Source of the DNA: a virus
Reading direction: 5' to 3' (one strand)
IMG/VR virus record: IMGVR_UViG_3300019471_000109
Coordinates: 1 to 64,000 of that record
Length of the DNA stretch: 64,000 bases
Shown: piece by piece, positions 957 through 58,457 of the stretch
How positions within the stretch are numbered: the stretch's first letter is position 1
How the letters are laid out: every line of letters begins with the position of its first letter
Made by a program: the position numbers and the translations under genes
The notes under the pieces: generated by a model
Database searches by the model: none
Told to the model about the DNA's origin: nothing
The model's input: the letters and a program-made list of their open reading frames with translations, nothing else

Positions 957-1874
957 TTAAAATTTAAAGAAAATCTAAACTTCTTCAGTTTGGTCCATCT
1001 ATCTAATAATAGGTGTTCTATTTTCAATATAAAGCAATTCACCAGAATGTTGAAGTAAATCATCTTTACGATGAGAATTCCCAGTAGCTTTAATTTTACT
1101 TTTCTAAGTGGAATTTTTTAATTCTGGGTTCATAATTAACCCTAATTGTCTAAACCCAGTATTTCCAGGTAATGTTGTCTCCGGAAAATAAATAGAATCC
1201 ATGTATGCTTTAAATCTAAGAGTATTACATTTTGTTCTGAATACTAATTGATTATCCTAGTCCCAGCTTAATACATTTTTATATCCCCATTTTTCTGGGT
1301 TTTTCTAAAGTTCATCTGGCATAGGAACAACTAGGTATTCATTTGTTACTCTATTCACAACAACATCAACTGGAATCGAATACAAATATTCCCATTTATA
1401 TCCATCTTCCATATCAATCGCATCACCCGTTCCTCTAGGAGCATAAATAGATTCATATTTTGGAGTCCATTTACCGCCAAATTTCTAGCATGTGATTTTA
1501 TCGGTTGCGATATCAATAGAACATTCACCTTCACTCGGAACATCAACACATCTATAAACTTTAATACCTTCACCCGGTGCGATCTGGTTAAAAATACCAG
1601 TATTCACTGCAATAATATCATTAATGTAGAATGTTTTTGAGGTTGCATATCTCTAATCGCCCCAATCCTTTCTTGGAATTACAGCATCAAAATAGGCCTC
1701 TGGTATCTTTATAATACCAACCATGTTATTCCATACGTCTACTATACCAGCAGTGTTATCTAGAGGCATCGGTGGGCTAAAATCCTATTCAGTTTCGCGT
1801 TCAGACCAAGATGATTCTTTACCAAACTACAAATAAATGGAATTTTTATCAGCGGAATCACCCACCTTGTTCAT
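957..1874 (-). CDS. Hypothetical protein, 305 aa, with 8 in-frame TAG codons
   Basis: Single continuous minus-strand frame from ATG (complement 1872-1874) to TAA (complement 957-959). The six-frame track shows only fragments because of the TAGs. Confidence 0.55.
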
Positions 1875-1936
1875 AAAGTTTACTAAGTTTTGTGTTCTAA
1901 ATTTAGATGTAATTAACTATCTATAACTTGGCATGA

Positions 1937-4517: not shown

Positions 4518-5375
4518 ATGAAATTTCAGAATAAGAAAAGATTAATTGACGTCGGAGAAATTGGTAACGCTTAGACCGGCGATATCATTTTTAATGGTGG
4601 CGTAAAAATTAATGAAGTTTTCTAGGATTTGTATAATGTATTTGGTGATAGACGATTACTAAAAGGTAACGATGGTCAAAATTTAATGATCCTTCATGGT
4701 ACTGGATATTATCAAAAACTTCCCAGATCAGAATATACAGCAGAAATAGAAATCGGTTAGATGCATGATATCAGCACATCTGATGGTCCATTAACAATCA
4801 GACTACCGACTAATTGTAAAGCAGGTGAACGAGTAAGAATTTAGAATTTTGATGGTTCATGGAAAAACTTTACTTTATAGGTTGATGCAAATTCTGGCGG
4901 TAATATTGATGGTAAGCAAGTACAAAAATATAATCAAGATTTTTGTGAAATTCAATTTGTGTGTACAGATGATTCACAATTAAACGTTCGTGGATGGAAA
5001 GCTTTAGTTACTCCGTTATATGGGAATCATTATGTTCCTGTAGATGATATTATTGATCTATAGAGACAACAAATTCTACAAAAAGAAATCTTTAAAACAA
5101 AAGACTATACTGCATTAAAATTATTAATTTCTGGCGAAGAGATTATTAATACATCAGAACAGACATATAAACAACTTATGGAAGTTCTTGTTTTAACTGA
5201 TAAAGATCAAGTATTAAGTACTGAATACGGTGTTTTATATACTTCTCCAGAAAAATTATTTACTGTTGAGTTTGTTTTATCCCAAGATAAATCTACAGTG
5301 TATGCAAAAATCTAGTAGAGTTCTACAAAACAACTTAGAATTCAAATTAAATCTATAGAGCAAATCAAAATTTAA
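4518..5375 (+). CDS. Hypothetical protein (285 aa) with 8 in-frame TAG, including a tandem TAG-TAG
   Basis: Continuous frame from ATG 4518 to TAA 5373-5375. It is on the opposite strand between the two polymerase segments. Confidence 0.5.
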
Positions 5376-5669: not shown

Positions 5670-6791
5670 TTAAATTTCAAATAATGAACTTAAAGAAGCT
5701 TTTTTCTCATGTTGCCATCCAATTGCTTCAGTCATTAATTTTAATGGAGCATCAAATCCTTTTTCAATCATTGTGTTCAAATCTATCATATTTTCAAGAT
5801 CTAAATTAAATTCTTTTGGCGGCTTAGTTCCTGTTGGCCAACCGAACACTTCACCAACTGTATTAGGCATTGTTAATCTTAACATATAGATTTTATCACC
5901 TGACTTAATTGGTTCAAGGTCTTTATGATATTGTTGCAGTTTATTATATGCAGCAGCAGCCTTATGGTTTTGCCCTGCTCCTTTTAATGTAACCCATAAA
6001 TTAGTATCAATATACTTGTCAAATCCATTTACTGATGAAATTTGCGCAATTTGATCTAAAGGTTGGGATCTATATTCTTCTTTAACTTTCTTAACATATT
6101 TTTGAAGATCAGATTCATCTTTAGTTAACATAATTTCAATTGCTTTTTTCAAAGCTTTTTGCGCAAATGGTGGTGTACTAGATTTCTGAGTTTCTAATCC
6201 CATTACTTTTAGTTTATATGTTAGATGGCCAGTATCATCGTATACTCTATCACCTTCGGAATCCCACACTACTGCTGCATATTTTTTCTTAGCTGTCCAA
6301 AATGCTGAACTTGCAATAATTTCGCGGTCCATGAACATTAAATGTTCTAATGAATTCATATATTTATGGAGATCTTGATATGCATTGTCAATAGCAGGCT
6401 GAATTAATTTATTATGAAGTTCATCAGCTTTATTAACTCTCTGTTCCATAGATGAATCAGGATTTCTTGATATATACATTTGCATTAACGGGTCTATATT
6501 AACATAAGCACTATCGGTATCTTGGTAGACGATATAATCTTTATCATTTGTTTTTAATACTTGGTTTAGTTTATTACTAATAGCATGACCACCCCATTGA
6601 ATAACAAGTTGACCTGTAGAAGTAACTGCTTCTGCATTTCTTAAATCATAAAATCTAAAGTGATTATTCCCTAGCGCGCCATATAACTAATTGATGAGGA
6701 TCTTACGCGCATATTGATTTACATATTCTATAATAGAAATACTCGTTAAGTGTTTTTTGGTATTTTTTAATTTTTCTAATGATGGTTTCAT
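5670..6791 (-). CDS. 43: DNA polymerase (gp43-like), C-terminal gene segment: motif B (KILIN-TAG-LYGALGN), motif C (YQDTDS) and thumb; 1 in-frame TAG at the conserved Ser of motif B
   Basis: Similarity to the T4 gp43 C-terminal third (HLMFMDRE, MGLETQKSSTP, ASLSSLFEI). It has its own ATG and a GAGGA RBS. The TAG is at complement 6687-6689. Confidence 0.85.
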
Positions 6792-6855: not shown

Positions 6856-8136
6856 TTAATTACTTTTTAATTTAATACCAACAAACATCTATAACTTCTA
6901 TTTGCCGATTAAGTTATTCCAATCATCACCACGATTAATCTTTTCATTCTAATCAATAAAAGGATTAACTGATAATGCATATCTTGTCATTAATAAGACG
7001 TTATTATGGAAACTCATAGGATCTCTTGAAATATAAATCTATGAGCCATCTTCTTCTTGGTAAGGGCAATAATATAAAGAACCGATAATATCATCTGGAA
7101 TATATTCTTCATCTTCAGGCTCTTCATCTTTTGATACAGCTTCAGCAATATCAATATTATGTTTACATCCAACTACAAAATAGTCAAATTTGCTATAAGT
7201 GTCAATGTAAATTTTGAGACCTGATTTTAAATACCCATGAGATCTTGTCATTTCTGATTCTTGGTTGAAAACAACTAAACCAGCACCACATAATAAACCA
7301 TACACATCAGGAGATACAATTACATAAGTAGCTGAATATGTTGTGTTCTATAACATTTTCGCTGCTGCAGCACCGATCATAGAATTGATATCTCTACCAA
7401 TTTGCCATAAAGGGTCAGTTCTTGTTGATAAATCAATAAAACCATTAGTAATACCCAATGCTTTATCATCAAAACGTTTACTTACAGTGATTAATTTACT
7501 AATAATATCTTTATTAACTTCATTAACCAAAGCTGTTGCTAATGTATCCTCAACAATTGCGACAGAATCCATTCCATTTGCCTCAAGATCTTGAATTAAT
7601 TCTTGTGTTAATTTGATCTAAATTTTTCTAGTTCTACATGGAACAACCCATTTACCAATTTCAAATTTAGCTTCAATAGGTGCTTCACCTTCAGTATATG
7701 AAACTTCAGCGGCGTCTGAATATAATCTTAATGTTCCATCGATAACAGCTTTTAGCACAACAACTGATAAATCTGCATCAGCACTTAATGTTCCAGCTTT
7801 AACTGCGATATAAATTGCATCATTATCAGGCGTTCTATATACTTTATCTTTAGTTACAGATAAACCACTTGATAAAACCGGTAAATCTTTAACTTTATTT
7901 TTACTATTTGTGCCAGTAACAGTTAAATTATTATCATGTAATGTTTGACCATCTTCAGTCAAATATTTTAACCCAAAAATTTGTGCTTCTGGGTTATTTG
8001 TTTGTTGAATAGCTACCATATCACGGAAAACTCTTGAGGCAACTGTTTTCTATAATGATACTAAGTACGGGCGAGTTCCCTAAATTGCGTTGGTTTTTGT
8101 CTATTCTTGTAGTAATTCTTCTAAAATTCTAGCCAT
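6856..8136 (-). CDS. 24: gp23/gp24-family capsid protein (closest to the T4 vertex protein gp24), 426 aa, 9 in-frame TAG
   Basis: The N-terminus MARILEELLQE-TAG-TKTNAI matches T4 gp24 MAKINELLRESTTTNSNSIG. QDLEANGMD, KIYIDTYSKFDYFVVG and LMTRYALSVNPF are also conserved. The track ORFs 7039..7305, 7348..7572 and 7618..8019 are pieces of this one frame. Confidence 0.75.
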
Positions 8137-11348: not shown

Positions 11349-12857
11349 ATGATTAGATTCTAGAAAATTAATGAAACATACGGTAAAATCTAGACTCTTG
11401 ACAACGATGCCTTATGGGAAATTAAAGATTATTGTTAGTTTCAACCAGAAGGCTATAGATTTAACAAAAAATATAAATATGGTGCTTGGTCCGGAAAGAT
11501 TTAGCTCGTTGGATAGAATGGAGAATTTCCATTAGGTTTACTAAAAATCATTGTTAAATTTTGCGTAGAGTCTAAATATAAAATCGAAATCTCTGATACA
11601 TTAAAAACTCATAAAGCATTTGAATCAAAAGAAGAATTTGATAAATGGATCGATTCAAAAGAAATTTGGGCTAAAGGTGTTAGAATTGATCCATATTGGT
11701 ATCAAAGAGAATCTGTTTTTCAAGCATTACAAAAAACCCGTGGAATTATTAATGCGCCTACTTCAGCTGGTAAATCTTTAATGATTGCATTACTTGCAAA
11801 ATGGTTTTCGGAAAATTTTGATCAAAAGGTATTGGTGATTGTTCCAACTACATCTTTAACTGTGCAAATGAAAAATGATTTAGTTGACTATAGATTATTC
11901 AAAGAATCTGATATCGCTGAAATTAGATCCGGAACTTCTCATTTTGTTTATGATAAAACAGTTGTAGTTTAGACCTGGCAATCCGCTCATAAAAAAGACC
12001 CTGAATGGTTTGAACAATTTGGAATGCTTATTGTTGATGAAACACATTTAGCTACAGGTGCTAGCATATAGCAAATGGTTAAACTAATGACTAATTGTGT
12101 TTATAAGATAGGTTTATCCGGTTAGTTAAAAGATGGTAAAGCAAACATTTTAAATTATATCGGTTTATTTGGCGATATTATTAAACTTGTTTAGACTAAT
12201 CAGTTAATGGAAGAAGGACAAGTTGCTAAATTAAAAATCAAAGCACTAAAAATTGATTATCCGGAATCAGACAAAAAAGAGCATAAAAAAGATACTTACG
12301 ACGAAGAAATAAAATTCATTACAAAAAATGAAAAACGTAGTAAATTGCTAGCAAAACTTGCTATTGGGTGTTCTTCAAAAAATAATGATGAAAATACTTT
12401 GTTAATGTTTAGATATTAGGAACATGGTAAAATGATGTACGAAGAAATTTGTAAATCATATCCAAAAGAAAAAGTATTTTTTATTAATGGTGAAATTAAA
12501 ACTAAAGATCGCGTAAAAATTCAAGAATTAGCAGATAAAGTTTCTGGTATTATTATTGTGGCATAGTACGCAACAACAGGTACTGGTATCAGTATTAAAA
12601 ATCTTTAGAATGTTATTTTTGGATAGCCGATTAAATCTAAAGTAACAGTGTTACAAACAATCGGAAGATCTTTAAGATTACATAAAGATAAAGAATTTGC
12701 TACAGTTTATGATATTATTGATGATTTAAGTATCAGATCTGCAAAAACTGGAAAAATTACCCATTAGAATTATGCACTAAAACATGGATTAGATCGTATT
12801 AAACGATATAATGAAGAGAAATTTGAATACTAGATTAATTCTTATTAGTTAAAATAA
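11349..12857 (+). CDS. uvsW: UvsW helicase (SF2 DNA/RNA helicase), 502 aa with 16 in-frame TAG
   Basis: Aligns along its whole length with T4 UvsW (NAPTSAGKSLM, VIVPTTSLT, VVV-TAG-TWQ, DETHLATG, LSG-TAG-LKDGKAN, IVA-TAG-YA, VLQTIGRSLR). The track ORFs 11781.. and 12207.. are in-frame pieces. Confidence 0.8.
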
Positions 12858-14119: not shown

Positions 14120-14533
14120 TTAGAATTCCCCTTGTTCAAATTTATCCCTGTCTAGAATATTCTTCAATGCAAATCCACGTTGTTTAATTGCTTCTAATGC
14201 TTCTCGAATAAAATCTAATTTTAAGCTTAATACATATAACTTCTAGTCTGCTTTTTGTAATTCAGTATCAGCCGCTAAAACAATTTTCAATTCAGACTTT
14301 TCATATGATTCCATACAAATACCTTCGCGGCCAGTATAATAATCAAGTCTTGCTTTTAATGTTCTAGATTTTTCATTTTCAGCTTGCTTCATTAAAAATT
14401 TTACGTTCTAAAAATAATTAAGCCACTTAGAATACAAGTAAGGATTATTTGCGATTTGCTATTGCAACCCAATTAGATTAATTTTAATATCTTCAGCAAG
14501 TTCTTGCTGTAATTGTTCTAAATTTTTTTCCAT
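14120..14533 (-). CDS. uvsY: UvsY recombination mediator (137 aa, 3 in-frame TAG)
   Basis: Clear similarity to T4 UvsY (LYSKWLN, KARLDYYTGR, YEKSELK, RGFALKNI). Confidence 0.8.
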
Positions 14534-16244: not shown

Positions 16245-17073
16245 ATGAATTTGATGTAGTTACTGATTTAAGATCGTCAAGATCTTTTAGTTTTCCTGAA
16301 AAGAATGATCTTTCAAGATGCGATACAATTAAATGAAAACCTGGAATAAACCAACGTTTTTTAATTTCATCAATCGCGCCTATAAATGTTCCTCCATAAG
16401 AACAAATATCATCCACAATAACAACTTCTTTATGGTCGAAGTCATTAACATCAGATAATACTTTCAAGTCAAACGATAATAACTTACCGGTGTTAAAATC
16501 TCTGATTTTTTCAATTGAAATTGCGCCATAAAATTCATTTGCTAAATGACCATAACGTTTAACCGCGGTTTTATCTGGAAAGCAAATTACATAATCCTTT
16601 AATGTTTTTCCAAGTGGAATTTCTGCTATTTTAAATGAATTATAAATTAACGAATCAATTTTGTTAATATTTTCTACATTTTTAACAACATTCAATAACA
16701 TATCTGAATGAGCATCATTGACAATTACTTTTTCAAATCCCAATGAATTTATGAAATCCGCTGCATATTGCAATGAAAAGAATTGATTAGGTGTTTTTAC
16801 ACGGTCCATTCTTGCGTACGGAAAATACGGAATATGTAATTCTTTAAAATTTTTATAATAAGGTGGAATTCCAGGCATACCTTGTTTCATGCTTTTGATT
16901 TTTTGAACAATAAACCATAAAGTCATAAAATCTTTATCATCTTTATAATGCCATTTGATAACAACATCTTTTGATTTCAAAATTGCATTTAGATTTTCTT
17001 CTGATAACTCAAGAATTTGTTCTCCAACAGGGTATTCATTTTGTATAAATTCCGTTCCGTTTATCGTAATCAT
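16210..17073 (-). CDS. prs: Ribose-phosphate pyrophosphokinase-like (Prs; PRPP-binding motif VVIVDDICSYGGTF)
   Basis: Type-I phosphoribosyltransferase/Prs motifs. The start is set at the internal ATG with an AGGAG RBS; the track's N-terminal extension overlaps nadV. Confidence 0.7.
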   Translation of the reverse strand: MITINGTEFIQNEYPVGEQILELSEENLNAILKSKDVVIKWHYKDDKDFMTLWFIVQKIKSMKQGMPGIPPYYKNFKELHIPYFPYARMDRVKTPNQFFSLQYAADFINSLGFEKVIVNDAHSDMLLNVVKNVENINKIDSLIYNSFKIAEIPLGKTLKDYVICFPDKTAVKRYGHLANEFYGAISIEKIRDFNTGKLLSFDLKVLSDVNDFDHKEVVIVDDICSYGGTFIGAIDEIKKRWFIPGFHLIVSHLERSFFSGKLKDLDDLKSVTTSNSFDYNYKGETNE

Positions 17074-17207
17074 AAGATCTCCTATTAAGTTAAACAAAAT
17101 AATTTGAATTTTAATAATAATAATTAAAGAAATTACTTTTATTTGTAAAAATAGTATCATCTAGAATGTACTTTTTCATCTTAAATGATAAATTATATCA
17201 GATAATA

Positions 17208-17585: not shown

Positions 17586-18113
17586 ATGAATATATTTCCT
17601 AATAAATAGATAGCTCATAATATAAGAGTAGAATTTCCTTAGTTAAGAGATCAGACTGTTGCTAGTTCATGGGCAGCTCAGATGACTCAGTTACCTTAGT
17701 TTACATTAAATGCTTCTCAGATTGCAAATGGTCCTTGGATGATGTCTAGTATTCCAGCAGCATCAGTACAGTTTGAACCTATCACAATTTAGTTTTTACT
17801 TGATGAGAAATGGCAAGTATACGAAGAAATGTATAAATGGGCTCTAGGTGAAGGTGATTATATCAAAGGTCATTAGAATGAAATAACTACAACTCCTAGA
17901 GATATGCTTATTCATGTGTTAGATAATAAAAATGAAAAGATTGTAATGACATTCAGATTTTCTAAAGCATTTCCTAGTATGTTTGGTGGCGTTGATTTCG
18001 ATTACACAGATGAGCAATCTACATATAATAAACTTCAAATAACCTTCCAGTATGCATGGTTTACTATTGAGAGAAATGGCGAAACATTATATAAAGCTAA
18101 ATTCAAGAAATAA
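17586..18113 (+). CDS. 19: Tail tube protein (T4 gp19-like), 175 aa, 5 in-frame TAG
   Basis: Similarity to T4 gp19 (N-terminal NIRVEF versus NLFQVEI; the C-terminal half). The track ORF 17904..18113 is its C-terminus. Confidence 0.65.
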
Positions 18114-19886: not shown

Positions 19887-19963
19887 GGTCCTATGGTATA
19901 GATTGGTTAACATACTGCGCTGTCACCGCGGAGTCACGGGTTCGAGCCCCGTTAGGACCGCCA
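19887..19963 (+). tRNA. tRNA-Asp (GTC)
   Basis: Cloverleaf folded by hand: acceptor GGTCCTA/TAGGACC, anticodon loop CTGTCAC, GGTTCGAGCC T-arm, CCA encoded. Confidence 0.85.
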
Positions 19964-20060
19964 ATTTCAAAAACAACTATAAAAATTTAGTGTTTTAGCG
20001 CTGATGTTCAAGGTTATAATAAATTAACTACAAGGCCTAGTTGTTCACTATTTATTAAAT

Positions 20061-20137
20061 GCCCCGTTAATTCAATTGGATAGAATATTCGCCTTCTAAG
20101 CGAACTGTTGCAGATTCGAATTCTGCACGGGGTGCCA
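20061..20137 (+). tRNA. tRNA-Arg (TCT)
   Basis: Acceptor GCCCCGT/ACGGGGT, anticodon loop CTTCTAA, TTCGAAT T-loop, CCA encoded. Confidence 0.85.
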
Positions 20138-20234
20138 AATATTTTAAATCAGAATACTAACAGCAATAATTATTTTTATATTTTTCATGGTTAGATAGAA
20201 CGATAAAACAGTATTCTGTTTTAAAATATTTCAT

Positions 20235-20308
20235 GCGTCTATGGTATAATGGTATTATTCTTGGCTTCCAACCAAGTGATGAGAGTTCGATTCTCTCTAG
20301 CCGCACCA
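20235..20308 (+). tRNA. tRNA-Gly (TCC)
   Basis: D-arm GTATAATGGTAT as in T4 tRNA-Gly, anticodon loop CTTCCAA, TTCGATT T-loop. One T-C mismatch at acceptor position 4:69. Confidence 0.75.
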
Positions 20309-20531
20309 AATTATAAAATAAAAGTTTATACATAATTTTGTATGATATAATAAAACAGAATTACGTAATCGTGAGTGAACCACGTTAATAGTTCGGTAAG
20401 AGAGGCAAAGTACTCCTTATGGCTAAAACAGAGGTGTAGTTAGTAAAGACAATGTCTAAAGTCGAATTACTAAGTTTAATTTTATATTAAATGGTTTATA
20501 GATACCCAAACGAAATCTAAGAAGACACGTA

Positions 20532-21299
20532 TTATGTATTCTTTTTGCAGTATTTACTACAAAATTTTACTTTAGATTTTCTTTTATTATTAGTAGAAAA
20601 TTCTTTGTTACATCTATCACAAATGTATGTATATTTTGGTTTGTAATTTTGATACATTTCTTGTAATTTTTTATTAGGAAAATTAACTTTAAACCAATTG
20701 AACATAAAATCTAAATCTTTCTTATATAATATTTGTATATTATATCCTTGTGATTTTGCAGCATTTAATTTTAAATCTACTAATGGGGTATGAAATCCTT
20801 TTATTTCTATGATTGTATTATCTCCTAGAATAAAATCTGGATAATATTTTTTATTATTATCATATAAAATATAGAAATCACATCTTTTGAATTTTATATT
20901 ATGATGTAAATTATAGATTACCCATAGTAATTCATATGTTGACCCGCAAAATATATTGTTATAATAACCCTGGATAGATCGACCACTATTTTCTCTATAT
21001 CCTCCGGTGTTACCTTTATTAACATTAGAAATATGTTTCGCAGCACATTCTAGGGAACAACATTTTTTATTCTCTTGACATGGATTGACATACATAATTT
21101 TATTACAAATAATACAATTTTTAATAATTTTAGGCTTCTTTAATTTTTCGGAAGCTTCTTTAAATTTAATCTAATTTTTGATAGATTTCTATAATTTTTC
21201 TTTATGTTCTTTAGACCATGATCTGCTATTAGCACATTTTCTAGAACAGAAAGCGCCGGATTTATTATGTAGTGTTTTACATTTAGGACATTCTTTCAT
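20532..21299 (-). CDS. Free-standing nuclease, probably a homing endonuclease: three CxxC...CxxxC zinc-ribbon repeats plus a PD-(D/E)xK-like core (YYPDF...IIEIKG); 2 in-frame TAG
   Basis: Track ORF 20532..21095 extended upstream through two TAGs to ATG (complement 21297-21299). It lies between tRNA genes, as segB does in T4. Confidence 0.55.
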
Positions 21300-21360
21300 A
21301 ATATTATTTTAAATAAAAAGTTATATATATTGATTATTTAAATAAAATCAATTTAAAAAT

Positions 21361-21388
21361 AAGGGTTCGATTCCCTTACGGAATACCA
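21361..21388 (+). pseudogene. Isolated tRNA 3' fragment (T-arm AAGGG TTCGATT CCCTT + ACGGAAT + A + CCA)
   Basis: T-arm and 3' acceptor strand with CCA, but no upstream D-arm or anticodon arm. Confidence 0.4.
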
Positions 21389-21508
21389 AATAAAAGTTTA
21401 CATACATAAATTTTTATGTATTATTAAAAAGAATTTTGGATTAACTACAGCAACTTAATTAGACTTGACTTTTAATCAATAATCTAGAAAGAATAATCCG
21501 TTTTATTT

Positions 21509-21584
21509 GGCTCAGTAGCACAATGGTTAGTGCGTTCGGCTGTTAACCGAGAGGTTATAGGTTCAAGTCCTATCTGGGCCGCCA
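21509..21584 (+). tRNA. tRNA-Asn (GTT)
   Basis: Acceptor GGCTCAG/CTGGGCC, anticodon loop CTGTTAA, CCA encoded. Confidence 0.85.
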
Positions 21585-21606
21585 AAATTTATTCTATTGA
21601 GTCTAT

Positions 21607-21695
21607 GGAAGACTGGCAGAGCGGTCTAATGCAGCGGATTCTAAATCCGACAACCGGACGTATCCGGTTCCCGAGTTCGAATCTCGGGTCTTCCG
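21607..21695 (+). tRNA. Amber-suppressor tRNA with tRNA-Ser identity and a CUA anticodon (tRNA-Ser(CTA)); the anticodon is at 21641-21643
   Basis: Type-II tRNA with acceptor GGAAGAC/GTCTTCC and G73 discriminator. D-arm GCAGAGCGGTCTAATGC with a 3-bp stem as in E. coli tRNA-Ser. Anticodon loop TTCTAAA has U33, CUA and A37. The long variable arm AACCGGA-cgta-TCCGGTT and T-arm CCGAG TTCGAAT CTCGG follow. CCA is not encoded. Confidence 0.8.
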
Positions 21696-21781
21696 AGAAA
21701 ATTTTAATTTTAGAGTTTTCCCGGAAGATTAAAAATGATTGAGGTTAGACTATTTTGGAATAGTAGTAGAAATATTTCTAT

Positions 21782-22429
21782 TTGTATAAAATTACAAATT
21801 TAGTTAATAATAAAATTTATATCGGTGCTCATTCAACAACAAATTTAAATGATAATTATATGGGCTCTGGTAAGCTAATAAAATTAGCAATTAACAAATA
21901 CGGTATTAATAATTTTAAAAAAGAAATTTTAGAATTTTTTAATTCAGTTGAAGAGTTATATAGCAGAGAAAAAGAAGTTGTTAATCTGGATTTTGTGAAA
22001 AGATCTGACACATATAATTTAATTGTAGGCGGAACTGGTTAGTGGTTTTACGTTAATAAATTTGTTAATTCAAATGAGTTTATGACTAAAATCGGAAAAC
22101 TTGGCAACGAGGCATTTTCCGCTAAACTGAATAATGATTCAAATTTTAAAAATTCTTGGAAAATAAAAATATCTAAAGCTAAAAAGAATTTTTATAAAAA
22201 TAATCCGGAAGCAAGGTTTAAAAATAGATATAAACATGATGGTTTTAAACATTCCGAAGAAACTAAATTAAAAATGAGAGAAATAAAAAAGAAAAATCCT
22301 CCGGTAGGAGATAAAAACTCTCAATATGGCACGATGTGGATTTGTAATTTAGATTTACAACTAAATAAAAAGATTTCAAAATATGAACAAATTCCGGATG
22401 GTTGGATTAAAGGCCGGAAGGTAAAATAA
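21782..22429 (+). CDS. GIY-YIG homing endonuclease (SegB-like) with a NUMOD-like DNA-binding motif; 1 in-frame TAG
   Basis: GIY-YIG N-terminus ([17 protein letters not shown]...R...E). Track ORFs 21782..22042 and 22082..22429 are in the same frame, joined by a TAG. The C-terminal [15 protein letters not shown] is a NUMOD3-like motif. It sits inside the tRNA cluster as segB does in T4. Confidence 0.75.
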
Positions 22430-22473
22430 ATAAGTGTAAAAAAATACTAACAGCAATTATTTGTCGCTGAATG

Positions 22474-22545
22474 TCGGCGGGTAGCTTAATTGGAAAAGCA
22501 GCAGACTGAGAATCTGTATATCTTGGTTCGAATCCAAGCCTTGTA
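22474..22545 (+). ncRNA. tRNA-like element with an unpaired acceptor: good D-arm (GCTT/AAGC), anticodon arm (loop CTGAGAA) and T-arm (CTTGG TTCGAAT CCAAG), but 5' CGGCGGG and 3' CCTTGTA cannot pair
   Basis: Hand-folded. It is either a degenerate tRNA or a tRNA-like structure. Confidence 0.35.
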
Positions 22546-22615
22546 AATAGTATTTTGTTTTTAATTAAAATGAGTTTTATTAAACCAGAATTCGAACAGC
22601 AATTATTTTCTTAAA

Positions 22616-22686
22616 TTTTCCTGGTACGAAAAGGGTGTAGGTTCGAGTCCTACTGCGGAATTTCCGTATGGTGTAATGGGAGCATG
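22616..22686 (+). ncRNA. Permuted or fragmented tRNA-like element: anticodon arm (TTTTC CTGGTAC GAAAA, anticodon GGT/Thr), T-arm (GTAGG TTCGAGT CCTAC) and 3' acceptor TGCGGAA-T, followed directly by a matching 5' acceptor TTCCGTA plus a D-arm (GTGT AATGGGA GCAT)
   Basis: The two halves make a complete cloverleaf only if joined in permuted order. All 7 acceptor positions pair (6 Watson-Crick plus 1 G-U). Confidence 0.35.
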
Positions 22687-22722
22687 TAAAAGAAAGAATC
22701 CTGATTTAATATAATTTGTTAT

Positions 22723-22800
22723 TGCGATGAATTAGAGCTGGTGCACTAACTGGTCTCATAAGCCATGATTAGGTGGGTTCGATTCTCACCATCGCAACCA
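22723..22800 (+). tRNA. tRNA-Met or tRNA-Ile2 (CAT)
   Basis: Acceptor TGCGATG/CATCGCA, anticodon loop CTCATAA, T-loop TTCGATT, CCA encoded. The D-loop is slightly long. Confidence 0.7.
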
Positions 22801-22802
22801 AT

Positions 22803-22878
22803 AGGCCGTTAGCTCAGTCGGTAGAGCAGTTGACTTTTAATCAACTGGTCACAAGTTCAAATCTTGTACGGCCTACCA
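22803..22878 (+). tRNA. tRNA-Lys (TTT)
   Basis: Acceptor AGGCCGT/ACGGCCT, D-arm GCTCAGTCGGTAGAGC, anticodon loop CTTTTAA, CCA encoded. Confidence 0.85.
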
Positions 22879-22891
22879 AATTTATTATTTT

Positions 22892-22968
22892 CTCGGATTA
22901 GCTCAGCTTGGTAGAGCAAAGTCTTGATAAGGCTTGGGTCACTAGTTCGAATCTAGTAACGAGAACCA
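22892..22968 (+). tRNA. tRNA-Ile (GAT)
   Basis: D-arm GCTCAGCTTGGTAGAGC, anticodon loop TTGATAA, T-arm ACTAG TTCGAAT CTAGT, CCA encoded. Two mismatches at the base of the acceptor stem. Confidence 0.7.
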
Positions 22969-22974
22969 ATTTAT

Positions 22975-23050
22975 GTGGCGGTATCATAAATGGTAATGAT
23001 CTGGATTGTGATTTCAGAATATGTTGGTTCGAAGCCAACTCGTCACCCCA
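22975..23050 (+). tRNA. tRNA-His (GTG)
   Basis: Acceptor GTGGCGG/TCGTCAC with two G-U pairs, anticodon loop TTGTGAT, C73 discriminator, CCA encoded. No encoded G-1 is evident. Confidence 0.65.
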
Positions 23051-23694: not shown

Positions 23695-24327
23695 TTATGC
23701 TAATAGTTCTTTATATTCTCTAGTTCTATCTTCTAATCCAATTGTGCCGCCATTAACTCTTTTTGTTAATAACACAAAATCAGAGATTCCCTAAAGTTTA
23801 TTTACATCCCAAAAGAAAACACCAGTCAAGACAATCAATTTAGCTGAACTTAAAATTTTATCGGGATTTGATAAAATTTCTGGGTCACCTAACCATTTCT
23901 AAAATCTTGTGTAATTATCTTTTCCTGTTAATTGAACTACACCACGACCACGATATTTCCAACCGTCGCCCGTAGATGCAGGGCCATTTCCCATTCTGTT
24001 TGCATACACAATATTTGCGATTCCAGCTTGGTCGGCTTTTTGAACAATTACGCCTGCTTTGTTTTTAATGTAACCATATTTCTATGATGTTATTCCTGGA
24101 AAATATTTTGGAAATGTTTTTCTTAAACCATCAGAAGAGTAATTTAAATTTTCCTAAAATTTCTAAAAACCAGCTGATTCATGGGCACATTGAGCAATAA
24201 ACATGGCTAACTGATTATCGGTCTAAATACCAGCTTTTTGTACATTCTAAATGATCTCCTGATAAATTCCGGGTAATGCTTTTGGGTATAATTTGTTGAA
24301 CTTTTGTTCTGTTAATTTAAAAGCCAT
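23695..24327 (-). CDS. Endolysin, glycoside hydrolase family 19 (chitinase-like lysozyme), 210 aa, 7 in-frame TAG
   Basis: GH19 signatures [31 protein letters not shown] and INGG..G, in a single continuous minus frame. Confidence 0.75.
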
Positions 24328-24346
24328 AATCACCTCATAAAATTAA

Positions 24347-33592: not shown

Positions 33593-33893
33593 TTTATCAT
33601 TTCAAGAAATCCAAAATTATATTGAGGAGTTAGAACGCTCCTCTTATAAAATAGTTATAGATGGCATTAATGTCTATATTATTGATATGAAATACGTGAA
33701 CGGTAAATTGGATTTATCTTATATCTGTTTTGACCAAAGATCAAAAACTCCAGAATTTGATTTAAAAATCAGAACAACCGTTCAAAGTTTAATTAATAAA
33801 GAAATTCAACAAGGACAAAAATGGTACAGCATCTTATCTTCGAAAATCTATGCTTTAATAAAGATTATTAGAAAACGGTTTGGCCTTTCCTAA
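33579..33893 (+). CDS. Hypothetical protein (104 aa; gp40-like by position)
   Basis: ORF track. It overlaps the start of gene 41 in another frame. Confidence 0.4.
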   Translation: MKMNNLSFQEIQNYIEELERSSYKIVIDGINVYIIDMKYVNGKLDLSYICFDQRSKTPEFDLKIRTTVQSLINKEIQQGQKWYSILSSKIYALIKIIRKRFGLS

Positions 33894-35245
33894 AAAAAGA
33901 ATATTTCAATTCCAATCAAGAAAAGATTATTTTCGATTTGTTTAATTCTTATTATGAGAAATATAAACAAATGCCAAGTAAAGAATCTTTGTTAATTGAT
34001 TTAGCTGCTAAAACTGGAATTAATACTGCAGATCATGATTCTGTAAAAGAAACTATTTCTTCTTTTAAAGAAAAAACAAATAACTTGCAATGGTTAATCG
34101 ATACTACAGAAAAATTCTGTAAATCACAAGCAATTTTTAATGCTCTTTCAGAGTCTATTATAATCCAAGAAAACTTTAAGAAAGATGAATCGCAAAGATC
34201 TTCTAAAATCCAAGATATCGGTGCTATTCCAGATATTCTTAAAAATGCTTTATCAGTTTCTTTTGATAGTTCTATTGGTATGGACTATTTTAACGATGCT
34301 GAAGCTAGATATCAGTCTTATATTCAAAAAGTCGATAAAATTCCATTTCAACTAGACATCCTAAATAAAATTACAAATGGCGGTGTTGAAAGAAAAACAT
34401 TAAATCTTGTAATGGCTGGAACTAATGTTGGTAAATCTATTTGGTTAGTAAATATGGCATCCCAGTATGTACAACAAGGATACAATGTTTTATATATCTA
34501 GATGGAAATGTCAGAAAAAGTTGTTGGTAAACGTATTGACGCAAATGTTTTAAATGTATCGTTAGAAGATTTTGAAACATTAACGAAAAATACATTTTTA
34601 GATCGTTTTAGCAATTTATAGAATACTAAAAAACTTGGTAAATTATTCATTAAAGAATATCCTACATCAAGTGCTCATGCTGGCCATTTTAGAACATTAT
34701 TAAATGAATTATCATTAAAGAAAAATTTTGTTCCTGATGTAATTTGTGTAGACTACTTAGGAATTTGTGCATCCTCAAGAATTAGATCTGGCGCTGAAAA
34801 CAGTTATGCTTTAGTTAAAGCAATTTCTGAAGAAATTCGTGGTTTAGCTGTAGAACAAAATTGTGCCGTTTGGTCTGCTACTCAAACTAATAGAGGCTCA
34901 TGGGAAAATTCTGATTTTGGATTAGAAGCTATTTCTGAATCAACTGGCCAAGCAATGACTGCTGATATGATTTTGGCGTTAATTGAAACCGAACAATTAG
35001 CTTTACAAGGTCAACAAATGGTTAAACAGCTTAAATCTAGATATGCCGATAGAAATCAGAATTCTCATTTTATTTTAGGTGTATCTAAATCTAAACAAAA
35101 ATATTTTGAGTGTGAAACTCAACAAGTAAATTCACAACAAAATAAAATTGAAGAGACTAGTACAAAACTTGAAAAACAAGTTATTCAAAATAAGCTTCAA
35201 ACATCACAAGAAAAACGATCAAGTATGGAAGAAATACAATGGTAA
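33821..35245 (+). CDS. 41: Replicative helicase (T4 gp41, DnaB-like), 474 aa, 3 in-frame TAG
   Basis: The N-terminus MVQHLIF...KTVWPFLKKEYF matches T4 MVEIILSHLIF...SKVWPYMDSEYF. GAIPDIL, NLVMAGTNVGKS, VLYI-TAG-MEM versus T4 VLYISMEM, NELSLKKNFVP and SRYADRN also match. The track ORFs 33938.. and 34955.. are pieces. Confidence 0.85.
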
Positions 35246-41996: not shown

Positions 41997-42448
41997 TGTT
42001 AGAAAAATTTTTGAAATTAAAAGAAGATTCTATTTTATATACAAGTACTATTGTTGACGAAATTAATTTTAGGCTGGATGAAAAGGATCGCATACCATTT
42101 GCTCCATTTAAGGAACTTGGAATTACTCGTCCAATTGATTATATTAATAATGTAGAAAATCTATTGAATTACATCTCTGATAATTATTCTACAAAAATAA
42201 ATCCGGATCTCCCGTTATTGTATGAATTAAACTATAACGATAAATTAACTTTACAAACTTTTAAATTATCAAATTATAATAAGTTGTCTAGCGAAGTTAA
42301 CCCAAAAATCAGAAATTACATTTTTGAAGTCGTTGATTACTTTAAGCGTAATGGGATAACTAATTTTGACGGTAAGATTACATTTTGTTTTAATAAAAAA
42401 GACCTATTTGTTTACTTATTAAGGGTTAAAGAAAACGATGTAGACTGA
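41984..42448 (+). CDS. Hypothetical protein (154 aa)
   Basis: ORF track. Confidence 0.5.
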   Translation: MEKMMLEKFLKLKEDSILYTSTIVDEINFRLDEKDRIPFAPFKELGITRPIDYINNVENLLNYISDNYSTKINPDLPLLYELNYNDKLTLQTFKLSNYNKLSSEVNPKIRNYIFEVVDYFKRNGITNFDGKITFCFNKKDLFVYLLRVKENDVD

Positions 42449-42857
42449 TTTAAAGCAATTAAAACAAATAGGGTTTTAGTTTTTAACCGATGTTTAGTTA
42501 GATCAAAATGGTTTATTACAAATAAACAAAAATGATGTAAAAAATTAGGTTTATGCTATTTACATCAATGATACATTAGTTTATATTGGTAAAACAAAAC
42601 GATGGAGAAAACGCTGGGATACTTATAGAAATGCGGTTAATTGGGTATCTGGTAATTCATCAAATGTTAAAAAGACATCTTTATTAACAGAAGCTATAAA
42701 GCAAGGAAATGTTATAAAGGTTTATTATAAACAAGCAATTTTTTAGTATTCTTTTAAAGATTTTGATAATAATGATCTTATTGTTTAGTCATTATTAGAA
42801 GAAGAAAAAAGAATGATTAAAAAATTCAAACCAAAGTGGAATATTCAACATGCCTAA
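42438..42857 (+). CDS. Small GIY-YIG endonuclease (139 aa) with 6 in-frame TAG, including codon 2
   Basis: VYAIYINDTLVYIGKTKR...R is a GIY-YIG core. The frame is continuous from ATG 42438 to TAA 42855-57. Confidence 0.55.
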
Positions 42858-46281: not shown

Positions 46282-48183
46282 ATGACTGATTTTAAAGTAT
46301 TAACTGACCGAGATCATATTTTGCTCCGTCCTGCAATGTATATCGGTTCAACTACATTAGAAGAACACCAACAATTTATTTCTGGTAAATGGACGGAATT
46401 AAAGTATTCTTCTGGTTTAGTAAAAATCATTAATGAAATTATTGATAACTCTGTGGATGAAGCAATCCGTACTAAATTTAAATTTGCAAATAAAATTGAT
46501 GTGCAAATTGACAATGAAAAAATTAGTGTTGCTGATAACGGCCGAGGAATCCCACAGGATTTAATTGAAACTCCTGAAGGTGAGAAATTATTAAGACCCG
46601 TTCTTGCATGGACTAGAACAAAAGCTGGTAGTAATTTCTCTAACGATCGCGTTACTGTTGGAATGAATGGCGTTGGCTCAAGTTTAACAGCAATTTTCTC
46701 GAAAGAATTTATAGGTATCACATCAGACGGTAAAAATGAAGTTCTGGTGCAGATTAATAATAATGCTGATGATATCAATTGGACTCAAAAGAAAAGTGCT
46801 TCTATGGGCACTACAGTGTCATTTAAACCAGATTTAAAAAGATTTGAATGTACAGAAATTTCTGAAGATGTAGAAAAATTAATTTTAGAAAGACTCCAAT
46901 CATTATCTGTTGTATATCCAAAAATTAAATTTTCTTTAAACGGTAAAAATGTTAATTTGAAGTTAACTGATTATTTTGATCAATTTGGGTTAAATGTTCA
47001 ATACAAATCAGAAAATTATTCTGTTGCATTAGCTGCTTCTGAAGACGGGCTAAAACAAAACTCATATATTAATGGGCTTTATATTAAAAATGGTGGTTCG
47101 CATCAAGATTTCTTTTTAGACCAATTTTGTCAAGAATTATTGGTACTAATTAAAAAGAAACATAAAAAGTTAGATATCAAGCCTGCTAGAATTAAAGAGT
47201 GTATTACTTTTGTGATGATTGGTTCAAATTTTAATAATCCAAAATTTGATTCACAAACAAAAGAACGATTAACAAATTCAGTTTCTGAGGTGAAGGAATA
47301 TTTTAATTTAGATGAGAAAAAATTTAAAAAATTCGTAAAAGAATTTTTTGAAACATCTGAATTATTAGATCCTATTATTGAATCTGCATTAGCTAGAATT
47401 TTGGCTGCAGAAAAGGCGCTAGAAACAAAATTAGCTAAAAAGATCAAAAAGGTTAACGTTCCATCACATATCAAAGCAGGACAGAAAGAAAATAGTATTT
47501 TATTCTTAACAGAAGGTGATAGTGCCATTTCATCTTTATTAGATTCAAGAAATCCAAAAATTCATGGAGGATTTCCGTTAAGGGGTAAAGTACTTAATAC
47601 ATTTGGTGAAACTAATGCAAGAATTTTAGAAAATAAAGAACTTGCGAACATTATTAATATTCTTGGATTAGAATTTAACAAATCGCCAATTGAAATCGAT
47701 AAACGTGGTAATGTTATTTGTAATATGAATTATGATTATATTGGTATCATGACTGATGCTGATGTGGACGGTGGCTCTATTCAATTATTATTATGTTTAT
47801 TCTTCTCTAAATGGCCTGATTTGTTTAAACATAATAGAGTAAAAATTGTTAAGTCGCCTAGATGGATTTTAACATCTAAAACTGAATCGTTATTCTTTTA
47901 TACAGATGAATCGTATGAAGAATTTTGTAGTAAGAACAAAATTAATTCATATGAAATTAGATATATCAAAGGTCTTGGTAGTTTACGTAAACATGAATAT
48001 AAGAAAATGTTAAATGAACCTTTCTTTGTTGATGTTAAGTTAAATGATAATTATCAAGATTGGTTAGATATGTTATTTGGTAATAATGCAGATTTACGAA
48101 AAGATTGGATGTTAGAAGGAATTACCCCAGCAGAAGTTAAATCCGCTCAAAATAATAAACAAAATATTTTTGAAGGTTTATGA
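46282..48183 (+). CDS. 39: DNA topoisomerase II large subunit (fused T4 gp39+gp60, GyrB-like ATPase plus TOPRIM)
   Basis: GHKL ATPase motifs (DNGRGIP) and TOPRIM; 633 aa as in T4-likes with fused 39/60. Confidence 0.85.
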   Translation: MTDFKVLTDRDHILLRPAMYIGSTTLEEHQQFISGKWTELKYSSGLVKIINEIIDNSVDEAIRTKFKFANKIDVQIDNEKISVADNGRGIPQDLIETPEGEKLLRPVLAWTRTKAGSNFSNDRVTVGMNGVGSSLTAIFSKEFIGITSDGKNEVLVQINNNADDINWTQKKSASMGTTVSFKPDLKRFECTEISEDVEKLILERLQSLSVVYPKIKFSLNGKNVNLKLTDYFDQFGLNVQYKSENYSVALAASEDGLKQNSYINGLYIKNGGSHQDFFLDQFCQELLVLIKKKHKKLDIKPARIKECITFVMIGSNFNNPKFDSQTKERLTNSVSEVKEYFNLDEKKFKKFVKEFFETSELLDPIIESALARILAAEKALETKLAKKIKKVNVPSHIKAGQKENSILFLTEGDSAISSLLDSRNPKIHGGFPLRGKVLNTFGETNARILENKELANIINILGLEFNKSPIEIDKRGNVICNMNYDYIGIMTDADVDGGSIQLLLCLFFSKWPDLFKHNRVKIVKSPRWILTSKTESLFFYTDESYEEFCSKNKINSYEIRYIKGLGSLRKHEYKKMLNEPFFVDVKLNDNYQDWLDMLFGNNADLRKDWMLEGITPAEVKSAQNNKQNIFEGL

Positions 48184-48356
48184 TGGAAGTTTATCAAAAT
48201 TTATCCGGAGATCACACAGAAGGAATTGAAATCAGGAAAGAACAGAATCTCGTTAAGCTTACTGTTGTTAATTTTAATAAATCAGTATCTGTTTATTTGT
48301 CTGAAAAACAAATCATAGAGTTACATAAAAATTTAATCTTGGTAACTCAGTCATAA
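48183..48356 (+). CDS. Small protein (57 aa)
   Basis: Short ORF overlapping the gene 39 stop (ATGATGG). Confidence 0.35.
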   Translation: MEVYQNLSGDHTEGIEIRKEQNLVKLTVVNFNKSVSVYLSEKQIIELHKNLILVTQS

Positions 48357-48363
48357 TTCTTGA

Positions 48364-48392
48364 ATGGTCAATTTTTAATCAATTGACCATTT
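48364..48392. terminator. Hairpin (AATGGTCAATT tttta AATTGACCATT)
   Basis: 11-bp inverted repeat followed by a T-run. Confidence 0.5.
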
Positions 48393-48407
48393 TCTTTTAA
48401 AAATCTA

Positions 48408-48435
48408 TTTACATCACTTTTGAAATGTATATAAT
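48408..48435 (+). promoter_or_regulatory. Early promoter (-35 TTTACA, 16 nt, -10 TATAAT)
   Basis: Motif match upstream of 48460. Confidence 0.5.
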
Positions 48436-48459
48436 AGACCTTGTTAAATCAATTTATTA

Positions 48460-48786
48460 ATGAGGACTTACAAAATGATTAAAACAGAAAACCAAAAACC
48501 AGAAAACAAAAATTATGAATTATGCGCTGACATCTTAGCAACATTTTCGATTTTAGAAAAATGGGGATTTGATAGTATCACAAGTAATTTATCTTTGTTT
48601 GCTGAGGTGTTAAATGAATTAGATTTCAAAACCTTTAATGGATTACCGCTGAATTCATCGAACTTATCTAATATGTTCCGCCGTTTATCTAAAAAAGAAC
48701 GTGAATCATTATTAGAAGAATTCAATTCTGGTTTCAGATCATTCCATTTAATGCAAGAACAAAACACAAGAAACATTATTCACTAA
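48460..48786 (+). CDS. Hypothetical protein (108 aa)
   Basis: ORF track. Confidence 0.55.
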   Translation: MRTYKMIKTENQKPENKNYELCADILATFSILEKWGFDSITSNLSLFAEVLNELDFKTFNGLPLNSSNLSNMFRRLSKKERESLLEEFNSGFRSFHLMQEQNTRNIIH

Positions 48787-48806
48787 CAGCATGTAGGAGA
48801 AATTAA

Positions 48807-57560: not shown

Positions 57561-57743
57561 ATGAAACAGATCAAAATCACAAAACAAGAATACCTTGGCA
57601 TCTTAAATGATAACTCTAAAAAATTAGTTGTTAAAAAAGTTAAGCAAGGTCTTAAATTTAAAGAAGTTATTTTTTCTGGTGTTGATGTAGTTGCTGAACG
57701 TGTAGTAACTGCTGATGGTGTTGAGTACTTTAAATATGCGTAA
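57561..57743 (+). CDS. Small protein (60 aa)
   Basis: ORF track. Confidence 0.5.
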   Translation: MKQIKITKQEYLGILNDNSKKLVVKKVKQGLKFKEVIFSGVDVVAERVVTADGVEYFKYA

Positions 57744-58362
57744 ATTTTTATAGATTATTTTATTAGGATTAACATTTGCAAGCCCATCAATCGCTAAAGC
57801 AGTTGAGTGTCCTGATATTGAAACTTAGTTAAAAGTTGAAGTACAGTCTGATGATATTGTAAAAATTTGCAATGATCAGTATATTTAGTACTTTAGTAAA
57901 GAATGGAAAATTCCAGTTGCTGTTGTTGAAAAATTAGAAGAATCTGATTTTAAACAAAATAAAGCTCATAGAACAAATGATTTTAGATTTGATTCTAGAC
58001 TTAGCTATAAAGATCAATTAAATCCTAAGCAATATGCTAAAAGTGGTTATGATAAAGGTCATCTAGCAGCATAGTCAGATACATCTGATTATGATACTGT
58101 AAGTCAATAGTACTTAATGACAAATATTGTTCCACAAGATCCTGTTTTAAACAGAACTACATGGAAAAATATGGAAACATTTGCAAAGGATTTAAGAAAG
58201 TCTAATTATCATGCTAAGTATGTGATTTCTGGTATTGTATTTGATAATTGTGAAATTCATAAAACAAAAAACGGAATGAATATTCCTGATAAAATGTTTA
58301 AAATCATTGCGCATGATAGAATTTCTACTGTATTCTTTATTGACAATATAAAACCAGAATAG
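57736..58362 (+). CDS. Secreted non-specific DNA/RNA endonuclease (EndA/NucA family, DRGH-like GYDKGHLAA), 208 aa, 5 in-frame TAG
   Basis: Signal peptide MRKFL-TAG-IILLGLTFASPSIAKA and the catalytic KGH motif. The track ORF 58117..58362 is its C-terminus. Confidence 0.55.
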
Positions 58363-58457
58363 AATAAAATTTTTAATTATGAATCTAATTTAGGTGTTGT
58401 AAATTCATAGTTATGCAAGGTAAAAATTAAGTTTAATCCAGAATAAAGGTAATTATA

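Follow-up and report, generated by a model that had tools for sequence, protein, structure and literature searches.

A T4-like phage that very probably reads TAG as serine with its own tRNA-Ser(CUA)

The stretch of DNA analysed here, which we call the window, comprises 64,000 nucleotides (nt), positions 1 to 64,000 of the viral IMG/VR record IMGVR_UViG_3300019471_000109. It contains a tRNA gene with a CUA anticodon at 21607-21695, and its protein-coding genes contain numerous in-frame TAG codons. Judging from the sequence, we consider it very probable that this T4-like phage reads TAG as serine by means of its own tRNA-Ser(CUA); the code change may well serve to time its late functions. An initial annotation, made from the letters of the window, had proposed the serine reading and the tRNA responsible for it; the features of the tRNA, the comparison with distant homologues, the codon swaps between close relatives and the variation within gp8, described below, were all in agreement with that proposal.

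The window encodes a type-II tRNA with a CUA anticodon

The suppressor gene and its anticodon are located as follows:

21607..21695 (+), tRNA-Ser(CUA) amber suppressor gene (ARAGORN, Rfam, direct sequence reading, tRNA alignment)
21641..21643 (+), CUA anticodon, in the 7-nt loop UUCUAAA with U33, A37 and A38

ARAGORN predicted a 91-nt tRNA at 21606-21696 (+) with the anticodon cta, and Rfam matched RF00005 to 21607-21695 (49.2 bits, E 1.7e-7); together with the alignment described below, these predictions recovered the phage-encoded type-II tRNA, with CUA at 21641-21643 and tRNA-Ser identity elements, that had been read from the letters beforehand. The loop has the form that marks an amber suppressor, CUA within 7 nt, U33, and a purine at position 37, and it was kept in the three CUA variants considered in this work. 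ARAGORN labelled the gene tRNA-Pyl solely because of the cta anticodon. A tRNA-Pyl has a 3-nt variable loop, a 6-base-pair (bp) anticodon stem and a small D loop, with pylS and pylBCD nearby; we rejected this identity for the window tRNA, which has a 20-nt variable arm and a 5-bp anticodon stem and is accompanied by no pyl genes among the open reading frames (ORFs) of the window.

Direct reading of the gene gave an acceptor stem GGAAGAC/GUCUUCC with G1-C72, G2-C71, and A4-U69, the discriminator base G73 (the G at 21695), a D stem GCA/UGC providing C11-G24, and an anticodon stem GCGGA/UCCGA providing G30-C40. The variable arm contains a 7-bp stem, AACCGGA/UCCGGUU, which places the tRNA in type II; no CCA is encoded. 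The predicted fold is a cloverleaf with an extra arm and the normal 7/5 geometry of acceptor and T stems. The identity set of bacterial tRNA-Ser consists of G73, C72, G2-C71, R4-Y69, C11-G24, a large variable region, and G30-C40, with the long variable arm as the chief determinant for seryl-tRNA synthetase (SerRS) (PMC9976931), and the window tRNA has every one of them.

For comparison we used annotated tRNAs of T4, ZC08, Escherichia coli, and PAK_P3, an ARAGORN scan of the fetched loci having yielded too few type-II tRNAs. In the alignment, G73 was common to the window tRNA and the tRNA-Ser of T4, ZC08, and E. coli; T4 tRNA-Leu and PAK_P3 tRNA-Tyr carry A73. Outside the anticodon, identity with the window tRNA was 71-73% for the tRNA-Ser of ZC08 and E. 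coli, 66% for tRNA-Tyr, and 45% for tRNA-Leu. Every full-length match to the suppressor in the phage and E. coli collections was annotated as tRNA-Ser; only its 5' half also resembles tRNA-Tyr.

TAG is translated within conserved genes

When genes were called again with a greedy ORF call, coverage of the window rose from 77.6% with the standard code (code 11) to 91.2% with TAG as sense, compared with 79.4% when TGA was made sense. The call gave 91 ORFs with 120 in-frame TAGs; dropping spurious ORFs over the tRNA array left 86 ORFs with 115 TAGs, and a few TAGs near N termini probably stem from over-extended starts. That no ORF terminates with TAG (72 have TAA and 14 TGA), as the initial annotation had noted, follows from the way the call is built; a TAG stood 2-3 codons before TAA or TGA in four genes, where 3 were expected by chance. 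The genes on which the argument mainly depends are:

957..1934 (-), gp8 baseplate wedge, 10 TAG (PF09215, E 5e-113)
4518..5375 (+), gp9/10-like baseplate protein, 8 TAG including a tandem TAG-TAG (PF07880)
5670..6791 (-), C-terminal part of a split family-B DNA polymerase, 1 TAG (6687-6689, the motif-B Ser; 45 homologues)
6856..8136 (-), Gp23-family (gp24-like) capsid protein, 9 TAG (PF07068, E 2e-68)
11349..12857 (+), UvsW helicase, 16 TAG (75 homologous loci)
14120..14533 (-), UvsY, 3 TAG (PF11056, E 5e-35)
17586..18113 (+), gp19-like tail tube protein, 5 TAG (PF06841)
23695..24333 (-), GH19 endolysin, 7 TAG (PF00182)
33821..35245 (+), gp41 helicase, 3 TAG, that at 34499-34501 in a Thr/Ser column (homologue alignment)
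42438..42857 (+), GIY-YIG endonuclease, 6 TAG (Pfam)
46282-48183 (+), topoisomerase II large subunit, TAG-free early gene
48807-51320 (+), rIIA-like early gene, TAG-free
57715..58446 (+), secreted DNA/RNA non-specific endonuclease, 7 TAG (PF01223)

By Pfam, the window holds the T4 core genes gp8, gp9/10, Gp23 family, gp19, gp41, UvsW, UvsY, Rnl1/Rnl2, and topoisomerase II, and on this basis we class the phage as T4-like (Straboviridae-type). Pfam domains span TAGs in gp8, the Gp23 family, gp9/10, gp19, GH19, Endonuclease_NS, Acb1, and UvsY, the gp8 match covering residues 7-325 and crossing all 10 TAGs. The initial annotation had counted more than 100 in-frame TAGs in genes whose homology continues on both sides, and the 115 TAGs found here, with Pfam matches running through them, bear this out. 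We also found the tandem TAG-TAG in 4518-5375, the TAG at codon 2 of 42438-42857, the motif-B TAG at 6687-6689 (-), and the gp41 TAG at 34499-34501 where it had placed them.

Close relatives of the window, IMG/VR contigs at about 93% DNA identity, retained TAG at 98 of the window's TAG positions. Of the codon differences from these relatives that lie past the first TAG of a gene, 663 were synonymous and 161 nonsynonymous (80% synonymous), compared with 73% synonymous in TAG-free genes; constraint downstream of TAG is thus at least as strong as in genes that have none. Coverage, Pfam matches, relatives, and the excess of synonymous differences all concur in making TAG a sense codon. The conserved TAGs and the downstream constraint together exclude pseudogenes, assembly errors, and a laboratory multi-amber strain, the last of which the initial annotation had named as fatal to its reading. 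That the TAGs are artefacts of any of these kinds is extremely improbable, as the 98 shared TAGs come from independent metagenome assemblies, more distant relatives at 80-82% protein identity are likewise recoded, and a search of 50,697 deposited phage genomes by megablast with the tRNA region gave only short tRNA or endolysin matches and no close relative.

Serine is the best-fitting residue in three tests

For the first test, window proteins with TAG written as X were aligned to 151 standard-code T4-like loci and 69 gp8 proteins, and the residues opposite TAG were scored against those opposite each candidate amino acid's own codons in the same proteins. TAG recoding was sought among the 151 distant loci and none was clearly seen, and they were therefore used as standard-code references. 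This alignment to T4-family homologues, which the initial annotation had suggested as a check, put Ser first over 47 TAG sites, with log-likelihoods relative to Ser (0) of -5.2 for Thr, -13.2 for Ala, -15.8 for Asn, -16.9 for Gln, -46.4 for Leu, and -53.3 for Tyr; the test was also run in a 37-site version. Ser was best in 88% of bootstraps of the 47-site test and Thr in 12%. The polymerase motif-B TAG lay opposite Ser in 45 of 45 homologues, and three UvsW TAGs lay in Ser columns, at 12564-12566 (75/75), 12624-12626 (72/75), and 11970-11972 (66/75). One alignment in the initial annotation failed: the TAG of UvsW 'RY-TAG-EHGK', said to correspond to Ser, lies opposite Val, the earlier alignment having been one position off.

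For the second test, we examined positions in real genes where the window and its close relatives differ in having TAG or a sense codon. The 13 swaps gave Ser six times, Gln twice, and Ala, Tyr, Pro, Glu, and Gly once each. The six Ser codons were TCA (two), TCG (two), AGT, and TCT, of which AGT, TCT, and TCA need two to three base changes; the two Gln codons were CAA/CAG. Measured against the observed substitution pattern of each amino acid, Ser was best by 7.6 log units and Gln stood at -10.7.

The third test used gp8. A single-sequence locus search gave only close relatives, and a protein search was needed to reach further lineages; it found relatives at 93%, 82%, 82%, and 80% identity, whose DNA was recovered. 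Among the four lineages, 19 codon positions had TAG in at least one genome, and the alternative codons at these positions (n=41) were Ser 33 times, from both codon boxes, Thr 4, Asn 2, Tyr 1, Ala 1, and Gln never. In the database versions of these gp8 proteins (P0001-P0004, from loci L198-L201), each TAG codon appears as Q; the recoding had been spotted by the gene callers, which applied code 15, and if TAG is serine these proteomes are mistranslated. The three tests are independent, and serine is the best-fitting residue in each.

TAG is concentrated in late genes and has a biased 3' context

TAG makes up 8.6% of TAG plus Ser codons and is commoner than TCG, AGC, or TCC, but its spread over genes is uneven: the heterogeneity G was 306 versus a simulated maximum of 141, and 55 of 86 genes were TAG-free where 31.6 were expected. 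We assigned genes to early and late classes from what we take to be the timing of their T4 counterparts. The late class (gp8, gp9/10, the gp24-like protein, its neighbour at 8149-8898, UvsW, UvsY, the gp19-like protein, and the endolysin) had 61 TAGs in 2311 codons, about 26 per 1000. The early class had 7 in 6897 codons, about 1 per 1000, and was composed of both polymerase parts, Rnl1, Rnl2, the NAMPT-like protein, a phosphoribosyltransferase, a phosphoesterase, dCMP deaminase, UvsX, gp41, primase, a Dda-like helicase, the topoisomerase subunits, rIIA, and rIIB. The topoisomerase II large subunit and the rIIA-like gene (46282..51320) contain 123 ordinary Ser codons and no TAG.

The base that follows TAG is also biased. 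In a same-gene control, A followed 55% of TAGs versus 39% of ordinary Ser codons (p 0.006), and G followed 13% versus 30% (p 0.0006); over all genes the bias had p 4e-6, and the two comparisons together put A after 53-55% of TAGs versus 32-39% of ordinary Ser codons and G after 12-13% versus 30-32%. An A-rich, G-poor 3' context is what selection for efficient suppression with release factor present is expected to produce, and it suggests, as indirect support, that the suppressor competes with release factor 1 (RF1) of the host. Neither this bias nor the concentration of TAG in late genes had been reported in the initial annotation; the same is true of the TAGs at invariant non-Ser columns discussed below.

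We propose that these features are connected in the following way. Bacterial SerRS ignores the anticodon and recognises its tRNA by the acceptor stem, by G73, and by the long variable arm, so that the host enzyme should charge the suppressor with serine, and the charged suppressor would then read UAG in competition with host RF1. Early genes would have to stay readable in the standard code of the host; late genes would be fully translated only after the phage tRNA had accumulated, and the code change would in this manner lock late and lysis functions until their time has come. We consider this logic, which others have put forward for TAG-to-Gln and TGA-to-Trp phages, the most likely one.

Alternative explanations

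Glutamine (code 15) is the commonest phage reassignment of TAG, known from recoded gut phages such as the crAss-like and Lak groups and assumed by public gene-calling pipelines, and the Q residues of P0001-P0004 and the Gln codons in two of the 13 swaps could be cited in its favour. The Q residues, however, mirror the code table of the pipeline and are no evidence for Gln, which trailed Ser by 16.9 log units in the homologue test and scored -10.7 in the swap test. No Gln codon occurred among the 41 gp8 alternatives, 33 of them Ser; TAG stands at invariant Ser columns, and the suppressor has the long arm of a type-II tRNA, unlike tRNA-Gln, which belongs to type I and has U1-A72. We therefore regard Gln as a most improbable reading. 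It is also improbable that TAG encodes Tyr or Leu, whose tRNAs have long arms, or Thr, or that it is read ambiguously as Ser plus another residue. Positions 8-43 of the suppressor are 89% identical to a PAK_P3-type tRNA-Tyr, in which a single change would turn GUA into CUA, but G73, the discriminator of tRNA-Ser, shuts out TyrRS and LeuRS, tRNA-Tyr and tRNA-Leu having A73, and both residues fared badly with the homologues (Tyr -53, Leu -46 log units). Thr came within 5.2 log units of Ser, and TAG falls at conserved-Thr columns more often than ordinary Ser codons do; yet Thr codons appeared in none of the 13 swaps and in 4 of the 41 gp8 alternatives, the 'Thr' columns are all mixed Thr/Ser columns, and ThrRS requires a GGU anticodon (PMC9976931). 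The few TAGs at invariant His, Arg, or Lys columns, which are taken up below, could also be cited for a reading of this group.

A different objection grants that TAG is serine and denies its uneven distribution a regulatory role, ascribing it to history or to differing tolerance of occasional termination. In the historical version, late modules were swapped among TAG-recoded phages, and early and host-derived genes came from standard-code sources. Such a history would suit the YadA-like and OmpA-like genes described below, which are likely host-derived and are TAG-free as recent imports would be, and also the homing endonuclease genes, which are mobile within the lineage and TAG-rich; early genes carry some TAGs, and the promoter search gave no evidence of timing. 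On the other side, core early genes of clearly vertical inheritance (polymerase N-part, primase, Dda-like helicase, topoisomerase, rIIA; ~6900 codons) have 7 TAGs and core late genes (~2300 codons) have 61, and a similar early/late split recurs in unrelated recoded phages (PMC7886860). Since TAG positions turn over fast between gp8 lineages, the bias is actively maintained and not frozen. We consider a distribution free of regulatory meaning rather unlikely, and prefer serine with a role in timing.

Several observations weigh against this preference. TAGs occur at columns nearly invariant for other residues, in UvsW at His (75/75), Arg (72/75), Lys (68/73), and Val (66/75) and in the gp24-like protein at Lys (41/43). 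Ordinary Ser codons of the same proteins fall at such columns about as often (13% vs 18%), and for this reason these columns do not argue against serine; the TAG at 12606-12608 (residue 420 of UvsW), opposite a His found in 75 of 75 homologues in an unambiguous alignment (SIKNLXNVIFGXPIKS vs SIKNLHHVIFAHPIKS), nonetheless remains odd. The enrichment of conserved-Thr columns, every one of them mixed, was 4/33 at TAG versus 4/225 at ordinary Ser codons, and Ser codons made up 46% of the close-relative TAG swaps versus 77% synonymous changes for ordinary Ser codons. As for timing, the early genes are not strictly TAG-free (gp41 has 3 TAGs and UvsX 1), and the classes themselves rely on homology with T4. 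Exact copies of the T4 late promoter, TATAAATA, numbered only 4 in the window and did not mark TAG-rich genes, and upstream regions read by eye showed no clear motif; timing was thus not confirmed from promoters. There was no release-factor or SerRS gene in the 64-kb window, and the host proposed below rests on just two genes that are likely host-derived.

The tRNA array, a homing endonuclease, and suppressor alleles in relatives

The suppressor lies in a tRNA array, next to an endonuclease gene:

19887..23050 (+), tRNA array: Asp, Arg, Gly, Asn, Ser-CUA, Lys, Ile, His (ARAGORN, eight tRNAs; Rfam)
21755..22429 (+), GIY-YIG homing-endonuclease gene, immediately 3' of the suppressor (Pfam GIY-YIG/SegE)

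The suppressor directly follows tRNA-Asn, and a tRNA(CUA) occupies the same slot in two relatives, L083 and L206. Their allele (L083:20114-20242) shares only about 74% identity with that of the window, against 92% in the flanks. Compensatory changes separate the two alleles in the anticodon, variable, and T stems, with no loss of the acceptor stem, D arm, G73, or anticodon loop, and G30-U40 replaces the G30-C40 of the window. An exact search of IMG/VR with the anticodon arm of the window tRNA gave no match because the relatives carry this diverged allele, and a degenerate pattern of D arm plus anticodon loop retrieved 5 contigs. L207 (IMG/VR contig 3300033072_000678) has a third tRNA(CUA) at 6730-6819 (-), in which the acceptor stem is of the GGAAG form, the discriminator is G73, and the variable arm is long. 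The L083/L206 and L207 variants both keep CUA, G73, the acceptor stem, and the long arm, which measures 17-18 nt in L083 and L207, and the changes in their stems are compensatory. L207 is an unrelated 62-kb viral contig with 38.6% GC, whose coding coverage increased from 0.61 to 0.81 with TAG as sense; it may represent a second, independent TAG-to-Ser phage lineage.

The segment 21730-22440 of the window has no counterpart in L083, from which the homing-endonuclease gene is absent. Three tandem TAGs at codons 3-5 of 21755-22429 ('MEXXXK') probably precede the true start of this gene. Its position beside the diverged suppressor allele suggests co-conversion or resistance to cleavage, and co-conversion around the GIY-YIG element would account for the divergence of the tRNA. 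In T4, too, a GIY-YIG homing endonuclease gene, segB, lies in a tRNA cluster, the one to which its tRNA-Ser (UGA anticodon, G73) belongs. Elsewhere in the array, Rfam gave a partial tRNA match at 22480-22540 (52 bits, model positions 6-65) where ARAGORN predicted none, and this may be a degenerate or truncated tRNA. Relatives carry four extra tRNA genes (Gln, Pro, Thr, and Trp) between tRNA-Lys and tRNA-Ile (L083:20682-21116) that the window (22886-22897) lacks.

Host and neighbouring genes

Near the end of the window are two TAG-free genes, one for a YadA-like trimeric autotransporter adhesin with a signal peptide (59466-61550) and one for an OmpA-like lipoprotein (61615-62379). Both are likely host-derived. 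The OmpA-like gene is closest to those of Pasteurellaceae (Glaesserella 54%, Volucribacter 51%), and a short piece of the endolysin region matches, as DNA, the endolysin of a Mannheimia phage. Our best guess is a gammaproteobacterial host that uses the standard code, probably a member of the Pasteurellaceae. The phage is known from human-associated metagenomes, and its closest relatives are IMG/VR contigs with sample numbers of the form 7000000xxx, which we take to resemble those of the Human Microbiome Project assemblies used in the survey of Ivanova et al. 2014.

The family-B polymerase is split into parts at 2503-4131 (-) and 5670-6791 (-), with a small ORF at 4124-4489 (-) and, on the opposite strand, the gp9/10-like gene at 4518-5375 (+) between them; one of the gp8 relatives (L200) has an extra 396-aa ORF with MTES_1575/DUF7487 matches just before the C-terminal part. 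Within 14604-17160 are TAG-free genes for a NAMPT-like nicotinamide phosphoribosyltransferase and a phosphoribosyltransferase-domain protein, which together look like a NAD-salvage pair, presumably of the kind present in KVP40-group phages. The best matches of gp41 were in the Vibrio KVP40/nt-1 group (53%).

Relation to known systems and significance

Serine-inserting amber suppressors are familiar from the laboratory, where T4 psu1+, a mutant T4 tRNA-Ser, and E. coli supD (serU) are, like the window tRNA, forms of tRNA-Ser with CUA that insert Ser at UAG, SerRS ignoring the anticodon. McClain's genetics of T4 tRNA-Ser is among the references of PMC11143913. Those suppressors are single mutants selected to rescue nonsense mutations; that of the window is fixed in its lineage and is needed for about 115 codons in 64 kb. 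Other codon takeovers by Ser-tRNAs likewise make use of anticodon-independent recognition by SerRS, and concern other codons in other organisms. The allo-tRNAs have 8/4 or 9/3 acceptor/T-stem geometry, in contrast to the normal 7/5 of the window tRNA.

Surveys later than that of Ivanova et al. 2014 name only Gln and Trp as phage stop reassignments (PMC7886860; Borges 2021 preprint), and the Borges 2021 preprint states that only these two were observed in phages whose code differs from that of the host. The crAss-like, Lak, and Garnet/Topaz/Agate phages (PMC7886860; Borges preprint; Peters 2022, PMC9523058) resemble the window phage in having a non-host code and their own suppressor tRNA. Like it, the TAG-to-Gln (code 15) and TGA-to-Trp (code 4) phages concentrate recoded stops in late, structural, and lysis genes; in crAss-like phages recoded stops are confined to late genes (Yutin 2021, PMC7886860), and the Borges 2021 preprint builds its regulatory model on this restriction. 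The window phage differs from all of these in its residue, Ser, in its type-II suppressor derived from tRNA-Ser, and in being T4-like.

The initial annotation had supposed that an amber-to-serine code was undescribed in phages, and this part of it is not borne out. A 2015 review (PMC4695839) states that phage UAG is reassigned 'to Ser and Gln' and that 'Gln-tRNACUA or Ser-tRNACUA' is encoded, crediting Ivanova et al. 2014 (Science 344:909). As the review presents them, the phages of Ivanova et al. are like the window phage in reading UAG as Ser or Gln with their own Ser- or Gln-tRNA(CUA) and in coming from human-associated metagenomes; a phage-encoded release factor 2 (RF2) is mentioned for them, and the window has no RF2. 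Literature searches on phage TAG-to-Ser recoding gave nothing beyond this review. The window phage is therefore probably not the first amber-to-serine case. We give only limited credence to the view that the serine code of this particular lineage has never been properly described. If the attribution in the review is loose or concerns other phages, the window could, though we hold this doubtful, provide the first properly documented natural amber-to-serine code, clade-wide and with a late-gene lock. Such a code would span T4-like, probably Pasteurellaceae-infecting lineages down to 80% gp8 identity, and possibly the unrelated L207, and would include a TAG 3' context tuned against RF1 and a suppressor allele spread or protected by the adjoining homing endonuclease.

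The window phage offers a well-supported natural case of UAG as serine, where the later phage-recoding literature names only Gln and Trp. Public collections use TAG as Gln and would, if TAG is serine, have the wrong residue at about 0.6% of positions and at up to 3% in late proteins; we know of no NCBI or other standard translation table in which TAG is Ser. Given a Pasteurellaceae-type host, the T4-like background would allow the early/late split of TAG, its context bias, and the tRNA to be compared with the best-understood phage developmental programme. More generally, tRNA-Ser is a ready donor for codon capture because its synthetase ignores the anticodon.

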